Origin: a virus
Taxonomy: Duplodnaviria; Heunggongvirae; Uroviricota; Caudoviricetes
Length of the DNA: 26,196 nt
IMG/VR virus record: IMGVR_UViG_2874945390_000006
Span: 1-26,196 of that record
Direction: 5' to 3' (one strand)
Below, piece by piece: positions 1 to 2,959 of this stretch; positions within the stretch are counted from its first letter, which is position 1; each line of letters begins with the position of its first letter. The notes below the pieces were generated by a model. That model was not told where the DNA came from, did no database searches, and worked only from the letters and a program-made list of their open reading frames with translations. Both the position numbers and the translations under genes were made by a program.

Positions 1-847
1 CTACGATAACCGCGCATTCAACATGGCTATCTGTTCGTCGTTCATGTCATCAATCCACATACCGTAAATTTCATACACCATTTGCGCAGTTTCATGCCCC
101 ATCTGGCTGGCTATAAATGCCGGGTTCGCTCCTGCCGTCAACAGCCAGCAGGCAAAAGTATGTCGCGTATGGTACGGATTACGGCGGCGAATACCAGCAC
201 GTTTTACTGCTGCATTCCATCTTGCACCCAAACTGCTTACCGAGTAATAAGGTTTCTGTTTTTCGTTACACACCCTGGGCATGAAAACAAAATGCAGTTT
301 TTGCTTTTCAGTTCTGCCGTACTCCCGATGATAAAAAGTGATTTCGCTTTTGCGATGATGCCCGGTCAGTTTGTATTGCACCTTCAGTGCTTCAAGAGCC
401 GGCTGCAGTAATGTTACCGTCCGGATCCCGGCATTTGTTTTTGGGGGACCGAACATATCAAGTATCGTCAGGTTTCTTCTGACATTCACAATTCCCTTCT
501 CGAAATCCACATCCTCCCACGCCAGAGCTGCCAGTTCCCCGTGACGAAGCCCGGAGTAAACGGCAAATTTCCACAAGTTTTGGCTCTGTCCTTTTTCACT
601 TTCCATTAATGCATTGAATTCTGTTTTAGATAACGGGTCAGGCTTTATTCTGTTTCGCTGTAATTTTTTTACTCCTTCAAATGGTTTGGTTGATATAAAT
701 CCCGACTGATACGCAAAACGTAACAACGAACAGAGCAGGGCGATATAGTTATCAACTGTGCGCACGGTTCTTCCTTTTTTGTTGGATCTTGGATTATCTA
801 GGTAAAGCGTTTCTCCATGCAGCAGTTCATTCCGGTAGTTTAAGATA
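1..847 (-). pseudogene. Phage tyrosine integrase (site-specific recombinase), C-terminal catalytic part present, 5' end cut by the IS911 left end
   Basis: Minus-strand ORF ending at stop codon 1-3; contains box I Arg (VYSGLRHGELAALAWEDVDF) and C-terminal HTRHTFACWLL...Y motifs of tyrosine recombinases. Reading frame runs into the IS911 inverted repeat at 848; the track's start at 873 is a GTG inside the IS. Only about 100 residues precede box I, so the N-terminal arm-binding region looks absent. Confidence 0.7.
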
Positions 848-919
848 TGAAGTGGCACACTGAATTTGGCCACCTGAACAGAGGTGATATGCTCACCTCA
901 GAACAACACAGGTGCTCCA

Positions 920-1222
920 ATGAAAAAAAGAAATTTTAGCGCAGAGTTTAAACGCGAATCCGCTCAACTGGTTGTTGACCAGAAATACACGGTGGCAGAT
1001 GCCGCCAAAGCTATGGATGTTGGCCTTTCCACAATGACAAGATGGGTCAAACAACTGCGTGATGAGCGTCAGGGCAAAACACCAAAAGCCTCTCCGATAA
1101 CACCAGAACAAATCGAAATACGTAAGCTGAGGAAAAAGCTACAACGCATTGAAATGGAGAATGAAATATTAAAAAAGGCTACCGCGCTCTTGATGTCAGA
1201 CTCCCTGAACAGTTCTCGATAA
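920..1222 (+). CDS. IS911 OrfA (HTH/leucine-zipper transposition regulator)
   Basis: ATG at 920 gives the 100-aa product [16 protein letters not shown]...[19 protein letters not shown]; the track ORF 884-1222 has 12 extra upstream codons. Confidence 0.85.
1171..1177 (+). other. IS911 programmed -1 ribosomal frameshift slippery heptamer A AAA AAG (produces OrfAB transposase)
   Basis: Sequence ATT AAA AAA GGC in the orfA frame; orfB lies in the -1 frame and is open across this site. Confidence 0.75.
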
Positions 1223-1248
1223 TCGGGAAACTCAGAGCGCATTATCCT

Positions 1249-2088
1249 GTGGTCACACTCTGCCAAGTGTTCGGGGTTCATCGCAGCAGCTACAGATACT
1301 GGAAAAACCGTCCTGAAAAACCAGACGGCAGACGGGCTGTATTACGCAGTCAGGTACTTGAGCTACATGGCATCAGCCATGGTTCGGCCGGAGCAAGAAG
1401 CATCGCCACAATGGCAACCCGGAGAGGCTACCAGATGGGACGCTGGCTTGCTGGCAGGCTCATGAAAGAGCTGGGGCTGGTCAGCTGTCAGCAGCCGACT
1501 CACCGGTATAAACGTGGTGGTCATGAACATGTTGCTATCCCTAACTACCTTGAAAGGCAGTTCGCCGTGACCGAGCCAAATCAGGTGTGGTGCGGTGATG
1601 TGACCTATATCTGGACGGGTAAGCGCTGGGCGTACCTCGCCGTTGTTCTCGACCTGTTCGCAAGAAAACCAGTGGGCTGGGCCATGTCGTTCTCGCCGGA
1701 CAGCAGGCTCACCATGAAAGCGCTGGAAATGGCATGGGAAACCCGTGGTAAGCCCGGCGGGGTGATGTTCCACAGCGATCAGGGCAGTCATTATACGAGC
1801 AGGCAGTTCCGGCAGTTATTGTGGCGATACCAGATCAGACAGAGTATGAGCCGGCGCGGAAACTGCTGGGATAACAGCCCAATGGAACGCTTCTTCAGGA
1901 GTCTGAAGAACGAATGGATGCCGGTGGTGGGTTACGTAAGCTTCAGCGAGGCAGCTCACGCCATAACGGACTATATCGTTGGATATTACAGCGCACTAAG
2001 ACCGCACGAATATAACGGTGGGTTACCCCCAAACGAATCGGAAAATCGATACTGGAAAAACTCTAACTCGGTGGCCAGTTTTTGTTGA
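1249..2088 (+). CDS. IS911 OrfB (DDE transposase catalytic part, expressed as OrfAB fusion)
   Basis: 279-aa ORF in the -1 frame relative to orfA with IS3-family integrase-like core (…[10 protein letters not shown]…[12 protein letters not shown]…). Confidence 0.85.
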
Positions 2089-2103
2089 CCACTTCAATCT
2101 GAC

Positions 2104-2181
2104 AACTGCCGAATCGTGACCCGACCGTCCTGATGCACGAGTTCCACAATTCGCGTCTTCAGTTCTTCCCGCTGTTCGGGA
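2104..2181 (-). pseudogene. 5' fragment (26 codons) of an unidentified phage gene downstream of the dnaC-like gene, cut by the IS911 right end
   Basis: Reverse complement reads GGAGGA-N5-ATG GCG AAA CCT TTT ACT CCC GAA CAG CGG GAA GAA CTG AAG... (MAKPFTPEQREELKTRIVELVHQDGRVTIRQLSD) and then runs straight into IS911 at 2103. Confidence 0.35.
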
Positions 2182-2212
2182 GTAAAAGGTTTCGCCATAA
2201 ATCCTCCTGAAA

Positions 2213-2959
2213 CTACTTAACAACCCTCGAATGGCTAACATTCGGACGCCAGCTCTCCCAGTTAAAATTCACCCAGCGCCCGCCGTTCATGACCATGCGA
2301 TCCATCACCCGCTCGCCGAGAAGTGTATTCATCGCTGCATGGTTAATATTTGTCAGCATCCCCACACCGCGTAACGATGCCGTCCGGCGATCAACAATCT
2401 GGTTCAGTACCACCTGCTCGTTTTTCGTATCCCGCTGCATGCCAATTTCATCCAGGACCAGCAGGTCAACACCACAAAGCTCCTGTAAAAATTTTTCACC
2501 GGATTTGCCGTTGTCGTAGCTCTCATGCAACACGCTCATGACATCGGACACGGTGACGATAATCACGCTACGCCCCTTCGCCATCAGCCGGTTGCCAATC
2601 GCGGCTGCAAGATGATTTTTTCCGGTGCCGGGCTTACCGCTGAACACAAAATTCGTACAGCCTGTCATCAGTTCGTCAGCTATGGATTTCGCCTGACTCA
2701 GTGCATGTCGCTGACCGTCGTTCTGCGCCCGGTAATTCGCAAACGAACACTTCCGGTGCAACGGCTGGATGCCGGAGCGGTTCAGGATTTTTTCCACCCG
2801 CAACTGACGATTCAGGCGGTTGATCTCCTCGCAACGTTTCTGGCCTTCAGCAAGTTGCCACTCGCGCCACTCCGCAACCGTTCTGAATGGGGCGGTTACA
2901 TGTGGTGGGGTCAGTCTGCGGATACGCTCCAGAACGCCTCCTGTCGCAATATTTTTCAT
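2213..2959 (-). CDS. DnaC-like replicative helicase loader (phage replication protein, AAA+ ATPase)
   Basis: 248 aa with Walker A FSGKPGTGKNHLAAAIG, Walker B DLLVLDEIG and the DnaC-like tail LGERVMDRM...FNWESWR; start overlaps the stop of the upstream initiator gene. Confidence 0.85.
   Translation of the reverse strand: MKNIATGGVLERIRRLTPPHVTAPFRTVAEWREWQLAEGQKRCEEINRLNRQLRVEKILNRSGIQPLHRKCSFANYRAQNDGQRHALSQAKSIADELMTGCTNFVFSGKPGTGKNHLAAAIGNRLMAKGRSVIIVTVSDVMSVLHESYDNGKSGEKFLQELCGVDLLVLDEIGMQRDTKNEQVVLNQIVDRRTASLRGVGMLTNINHAAMNTLLGERVMDRMVMNGGRWVNFNWESWRPNVSHSRVVK

Follow-up and report, generated by a model that had tools for sequence, protein, structure and literature searches.

A 26,196-nt stretch of DNA catalogued as a tailed virus (IMG/VR record IMGVR_UViG_2874945390_000006), which at its full length is referred to here as the window, is part of the Shigella boydii chromosome CP026836.1 (assembly GCA_002950135.1), where exact matches of its proteins place it, an accession also given as S. 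boydii elsewhere (PMC12817139). At the window's left end, the insertion sequence (IS) IS911 joins a fragment of an integrase gene, intR, to a fragment of a DUF977 gene. This region is probably, with a likelihood we put at about 0.7, the scar of IS-mediated decay in a Rac-like prophage at ttcA, in which an inversion between IS911 copies was followed by an IS600-mediated deletion. Beyond position 1 of the window, the chromosome continues with ttcA (52 bp off), dbpA, ynaL and zntB; as ttcA and its neighbours stand directly beyond intR, the remnant of this gene is still at the Rac attachment site.

The IS911 element and its flanks comprise the following features.

1–847, minus strand: 3′ fragment of intR, a Rac-type tyrosine integrase gene, now a pseudogene (stop codon at 1–3, codons 131–411 at 4–846, plus one nucleotide of codon 130)
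845–847, no strand: left flanking triplet ATA, native intR sequence
848–2096, plus strand: complete IS911 of 1249 bp, IS3 family
920–1222, plus strand: orfA, with the Pfam domain HTH_Tnp_1
1171–1177, plus strand: A6G slippery motif AAAAAAG, the frameshift site from orfA to orfB
1249–2088, plus strand: orfB frame (−1 relative to orfA), with the Pfam domains rve/rve_3 (DDE)
2097–2099, no strand: right flanking triplet ATC, which on the other strand is the native GAT of DUF977 codon 34; it does not repeat ATA
2097–2198, minus strand: 5′ stub of the DUF977 gene (ydaW-like, winged-helix), 34 of 140 codons, identified from the list of open reading frames (ORFs) and by comparison with Escherichia coli VL40

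The limits of the element are exact. The motif of the left inverted repeat end, TGAAGTGGCACACTG..., begins at 848, and that of the right inverted repeat end finishes at 2096 on the opposite strand; the chance expectation for such terminal-motif matches was zero, and none occurred in 100 shuffles. The terminal inverted repeats, which are imperfect and of the form 5′-TG...CA-3′, are TGAAGTGGCACACTGAATTTGGCCAC at 848–873 and its partner at 2071–2096 on the other strand. Thousands of E. coli records contain copies, annotated as “IS3-like element IS911”, to which this element is 99.6–100% identical across its length. With orfA, the slippery motif and orfB all intact, it appears to be an intact and possibly active IS911, and it has no function at this locus beyond being such an element.

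Simple insertions of IS911 are typically flanked by a target duplication of 3 bp, or rarely 4 bp. Comparing both flanks revealed no direct repeat of either length at the ends of this copy, the adjacent triplets being ATA and ATC and the 4-bp flanks GATA and ATCT. The missing duplication is a property of the insertion event rather than of the element, and marks a later rearrangement. Nor is it peculiar to this copy: an OrfA look-up in the Shigella chromosomes CP026836.1, CP026845.1 and UYIT01000003.1 (loci L016–L025) retrieved nine complete IS911 copies, just one of which had a target duplication (ccc/ccc), leaving eight, that of the window included, without. Duplication-less IS911 is therefore the rule in these three chromosomes.

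Both flanks are native sequence of truncated genes, without a mismatch up to the IS911 ends. On the left, intact intR reads gtttaagATA/tcgctataac and the window gtttaagata/TGAAGTGG, where the slash marks the breakpoint. By BLASTP, the remnant protein agrees with residues 131–411 of the E. coli VL40 IntR, which has 411 aa, at 280 of 281 positions; the N-terminal 130 residues and the start codon are missing. Lost with them are the Arm-DNA-bind_2 domain (aa 5–69) and most of the SAM-like (core-binding) domain; Pfam accordingly detected only Phage_integrase in the remnant, and Arm-DNA-bind_2 only in the full-length protein. What is left is not a full-length Rac-type IntR, which has 411 aa with arm-binding and catalytic domains, though the site beside ttcA has been kept.

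On the right, intact DUF977 reads gttgtcaGAT/gaaacagg and the window CCACTTCA/atctgacaac. The 34-aa ORF, identical to the first 102 nt of the VL40 gene, stops at a TGA made by the IS911 terminus (2094–2096). The intact DUF977 protein matches Pfam PF06163, and HTH_24 at residues 11–54; the stub does not provide the full PF06163 coverage of the protein of about 140 aa. DUF977 is located just 3′ of the ydaU and dnaC-like replication genes. The original prediction, made from the sequence alone, was right that the right-hand gene is truncated, but its attribution to the replication module needs this refinement, and its count of 26 codons was wrong. Its other observations at this junction stand: the integrase is cut at IS911, with 281 of 411 aa left on alignment to the full-length VL40 protein, and the flanking triplets differ, with no duplication at 3 or 4 bp.

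The genes intR and DUF977 are dead, as is the prophage itself, which in this S. boydii lineage can no longer excise from its site at ttcA. In a very improbable reading, an in-frame GTG at 871–873, within the IS911 left end, would drive expression of an arm-less IntR (a 290-aa ORF, 1–873) that retained some activity; no promoter-like site reading outward from that end into intR was found.

The evidence for rearrangement comes from three enteroinvasive E. coli with intact or near-intact ttcA prophages: VL40 (L001), RMDEC364 (L002) and FDAARGOS_944 (L038). Window 1–847 matches the intR of VL40 at 99.9% and that of FDAARGOS_944 at 98.9%. In both of these strains, the genes after intR are xisR, those for recombination, a repressor/cro pair and ydaT, and then ydaU, a dnaC/IstB-like ATPase gene and DUF977, which starts 11.6 kb from the intR breakpoint. 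The ydaU-dnaC-DUF977 genes lie on the strand opposite intR in these prophages, whereas the window has them on the strand of intR. The canonical context of xisR, intR (411 aa) and ttcA was also present in ten further assemblies. Beyond the DUF977 stub, the block in the window contains three more features.

2213–2959, minus strand: DnaC/IstB-like ATPase gene, 248 aa, with the Pfam domains IstB_IS21 and Bac_DnaA
2966–4165, minus strand: replication initiator gene of the YdaU family (DUF1376), 399 aa, with the Pfam domain DUF1376
4178–4209, minus strand: last 32 nt of ydaT, forming the inner end of the inverted block (the alignment stops at L001 13622, within ydaT as annotated at L001 13231–13653)

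Window 2093–4209 aligned to VL40 (L001 15737–13622) at 99.76% over 2117 nt, reversed relative to the alignment of intR, and window 2097–3000 (904 nt) was 100% identical in VL40 and FDAARGOS_944. By this sequence comparison, the 2.1-kb block at 2097–4209 is inverted relative to intR. The two flanks of IS911 correspond to separate, oppositely oriented sites in VL40 and FDAARGOS_944, and because intR and the replication block are divergent in intact ttcA prophages, an inversion-type exchange is required at IS911. A pure deletion at this junction was rejected, as the orientation of the block is wrong for it. The original prediction had noted that an integrase co-oriented with replication genes is not canonical, and had proposed an IS911-associated rearrangement in place of a simple insertion; the divergent order in the intact relatives bears out the former, and the distance between the flanks there the latter. 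It had offered as routes either an IS911-mediated deletion or recombination between two IS911 copies, and with the deletion excluded by orientation, the probable mechanism is an inversion-type exchange involving IS911, for which the reciprocal flanks were not found. Overall, that earlier interpretation is partly supported.

The other end of the inverted block is occupied by a second IS, and the late genes follow.

4210–5473, plus strand: IS600 copy 1, 99.7% identical to an annotated IS600 of VL40; the second rearrangement junction
5476–16779, plus strand: late (head and tail) genes, 99.74% identical to L002 24070–35374 and collinear with the ttcA prophage of RMDEC364
16780–18043, minus strand: IS600 copy 2, cleanly inserted and flanked by a duplication (CTG/CTG); it served as a positive control

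IS600 copy 1, 2.1 kb from the IS911 junction, links the late-gene region with the ydaT end of the inverted block, and its flanks (ACC and CTC) likewise form no target duplication. To its right, the sequence resumes at L002 24070 of RMDEC364, at about nt 334 of a gene for a 539-aa protein that has no Pfam match and sits between the small-terminase and portal genes. The late genes keep their native orientation relative to intR. The gene interrupted by IS600 copy 2 is annotated, in the prophage of RMDEC364, as that of a lytic transglycosylase domain protein. Relative to the intact prophages, around 20 kb is missing from the window: from the 5′ part of intR through ydaT, and from the 3′ part of DUF977 through the start of the late region.

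The proposed history begins with an ancestral prophage of the order A-B1-B2-C-D. A would be the 3′ part of intR, and D the head and tail genes; B1 would span the 5′ part of intR, xisR, the recombination and immunity genes and ydaT; B2 would span the ydaT end, ydaU, the dnaC-like gene and the 5′ part of DUF977; and C would run from the 3′ part of DUF977 to the early late-gene region. In the first step, an IS911 in intR would have exchanged with an oppositely oriented IS911 in DUF977, inverting B1 and B2 to give A-IS911-B2′-B1′-IS911-C-D. Either homologous recombination of two inserted copies, or a transposase-mediated event within the molecule in which the intR copy attacked DUF977, could equally have generated this same product. 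In the second step, an event between IS600 copies of like orientation, or else an adjacent deletion by IS600, would have removed B1′-IS911-C, leaving A-IS911-B2′-IS600-D, which is the arrangement of the window. The reverse order, with an IS600 inversion preceding an IS911 deletion, would be equally parsimonious. The absence of a target duplication would follow from the hybrid nature of the resulting IS911, whose left flank, ATA, would come from the intR site and whose right flank, ATC (the reverse complement of GAT), from the DUF977 site.

The alignments show the geometry on which this history is built: the IS911 ends are exact, both genes are truncated, B2 is inverted relative to the intact prophages, A and D keep their native position and orientation, and neither junction has a duplication. 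How many IS copies took part, in what order the events fell, and whether RecA or the transposase effected the joining are what we infer from it. When duplications are missing, the reported causes are usually recombination between IS copies or adjacent deletion (PMC11708052), and in Shigella the expansion of IS911 and IS600 has been accompanied by IS-mediated deletion and rearrangement (PMC7373316).

The arrangement is not confined to a single assembly. The 50-nt sequences across both IS911 junctions were identical in CP026836.1, CP026824.1, CP027027.1, PSSP01000001.1 and UYIS01000019.1, and in all but the first of these IS911 is itself split by IS30, with pieces of IS600 or IS630. The point of the IS30 split is the same in these four assemblies (L005–L008), at about window 1181/1182; ydaU is split in them by IS2, at about 3846–3853, and in CP026824.1 intR is further split by an IS630-family element. 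The junction from DUF977 into IS911 was additionally present in two short-read contigs, which extend 28–74 nt into the element. As the junction is common to five records, four of which have nested IS insertions, it is real and old, and predates the later IS hits; the arrangement is fixed in a Shigella lineage. A look-up of the 34-aa stub returned 29 blocks, a count that overstates this distribution, because some of the entries are partial DUF977 genes with native sequence at contig ends (L009, L012 and L013). These three draft contigs stop 2–3 nt past the position of IS911 in DUF977, in native sequence (…TCCGATGA), the probable reason being a repeat boundary where assemblies contain several alleles of DUF977.

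Two sets of findings weigh against an inversion and deletion within one prophage. The first concerns modularity, as a VL40-type replication block and RMDEC364-type late genes were found together in no sampled intact prophage; a single-prophage origin of all three pieces is plausible, but for this reason unproven. The second concerns the reciprocal product. The two-copy model would predict another IS911 of the form …TAT-IS911-GAT…, bordered by ...cgctatagcgaTAT and, at the opposite end, by GATgaaacaggtatc, and neither reciprocal junction (the intR 5′ part with IS911, or IS911 with the DUF977 3′ part) was found anywhere that was searched. Five predicted products of fusion or truncation were looked up by exact match in a collection of 15 billion proteins, and none of them was there. 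No homologue of the N-terminal IntR fragment read into IS911, those met being other truncations, through an IS1 insertion (P0003), frameshifts in nanopore-type assemblies (P0010/P0030) or other breakpoints. The C-terminal DUF977 fragments were all incomplete genes at the ends of contigs, from a different allele (S. flexneri/S. sonnei), and an XisR context look-up returned only canonical E. coli Rac contexts. DNA pattern scans for the predicted reciprocal junctions in GTDB representatives and JGI metagenomes were empty, in sets that probably do not contain Shigella; viral contigs, a collection that probably lacks this genome, likewise gave no match when scanned for the IS911-DUF977 junction of the window itself. 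The sole other IS911 copy retrieved from CP026836.1, without a scan of the whole genome, has phage tail genes to one side and a gene for peptidase M20 to the other, and its flanks are unrelated. These negatives would be expected had the reciprocal copy been deleted, and they are weak, since the search fell short of the whole genome; nevertheless, with the reciprocal junction not found, the two-copy step is one that we only infer.

The modularity of these prophages leads to the alternative that the 2.1-kb replication block was not inverted in place, but came from another prophage or from incoming DNA and was placed between IS911 and IS600. This would entail two IS-IS homologous exchanges, in the form of a double crossover using IS911 and IS600 as arms, or else two large chromosomal rearrangements. 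The ttcA prophages of this clade are mosaic: in VL40 and FDAARGOS_944 the VL40-type replication block accompanies lambda-like late genes, the late genes of the window are linked in RMDEC364 to a DnaB-type replication module, and a 95%-identical ydaU/dnaC/DUF977 block exists in another prophage elsewhere in RMDEC364, VL46 and CFSAN029787. Yet the block in the window is 99.8–100% identical to the copies in the ttcA prophages of VL40 and FDAARGOS_944, as against 95% for those other prophages, and its ydaT end also matches ttcA-prophage sequence. Import would need at least as many events as rearrangement in place, and no donor locus was seen. We regard it as unlikely, though not negligible. A much smaller probability attaches to a one-step origin, in which IS911 was captured at a double-strand break, or attacked intramolecularly, such that the inversion arose without there ever having been two independent insertions. 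Capture at a break would leave no duplication and would never have involved a second copy, consistent with the failure to find a reciprocal one, and insertions of this kind, tied to large rearrangements, are a proposal drawn from events observed directly for IS5 and IS481 (PMC11708052). However, that proposal has not been shown for IS911, positive evidence for it is lacking here, and classical routes explain everything seen, making such an origin distinctly improbable. Were it true, this lineage would be a natural example of duplication-less, rearrangement-coupled movement by a copy-out/paste-in IS.

We give the two remaining explanations almost no credence. A simple insertion at a pre-existing junction of intR and DUF977, with the duplication later lost through point mutation, draws on the agreement of ATA and ATC at their first two positions (AT). 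It is effectively refuted by the flanks, which are the unmutated native sequences of two different genes up to the IS ends, each continuing perfectly into its own gene; furthermore, an IS-free intR/DUF977 junction was found in no genome, and at least 80% of window 1–2300 was covered by none of the 7274 matching E. coli records. That contigs were mis-joined across a repeated IS911 is a similarly slight prospect. IS911 is multicopy, and IS elements are classic points of mis-assembly, but the concordance of five independently assembled records at both junctions, with IS911 variously interrupted in four of them and the right junction recovered from short-read contigs as well, led us to reject an artefact. 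An IS911 inversion and IS600 deletion in a Rac-like prophage is accordingly the reading that we retain.

Beyond these junctions, the ttcA prophages of VL40, RMDEC364 and FDAARGOS_944 (L001, L002, L037 and L038) have in common their left arm and their right end, the latter consisting of a tail-fibre N-terminal gene and DUF4376, followed by sitDCBA. The modules that vary among them are those for replication (ydaU/dnaC-like or HTH/DnaB) and the late genes (lambda-like or E217-like myovirus). Window 20431–23188, part of the tail/baseplate region, does not match the prophage of RMDEC364 at the nucleotide level; the latter has about 5 kb at the equivalent place, and this difference may represent a module swap or a deletion.

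For annotation, the integrase and the DUF977 stub should be treated as pseudogene fragments. The odd co-orientation of integrase and replication genes is an IS scar, not a new prophage architecture, and matters little beyond annotation, although the common junctions could help to recognise a group of Shigella genomes as one lineage.

The Rac prophage of E. coli K-12, with the gene order intR-xisR ... ydaS-ydaT-ydaU-ydaV-ydaW, is among the nearest known counterparts of the prophage in the window. The two are alike in their attachment site beside ttcA, their IntR family, their type of replication block (ydaU, the dnaC-like ydaV and the DUF977 gene ydaW) and their state as defective remnants. Unlike canonical Rac-type prophages, in which intR and the replication genes are divergent and 10–12 kb apart, the window has them co-oriented with only IS911 between. 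In joining non-contiguous DNA through an IS3-family element without a duplication, it resembles the IS150 events of the Lenski long-term lines (PMC11708052); those, however, were deletions watched as they arose, whereas the window would represent an inversion followed by loss, reconstructed by comparison only. An IS-driven scar of this kind is ordinary, and routine for Shigella. The decay of Shigella genomes through the expansion of IS1, IS2, IS4, IS600 and IS911 (PMC7373316) matches the window in species group, IS types, the cutting of genes, and the deletions and inversions between copies. There is no difference in kind: the window adds one specific case, apparently not described before, from the prophage at ttcA (the Rac site) in a single lineage of S. 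boydii.

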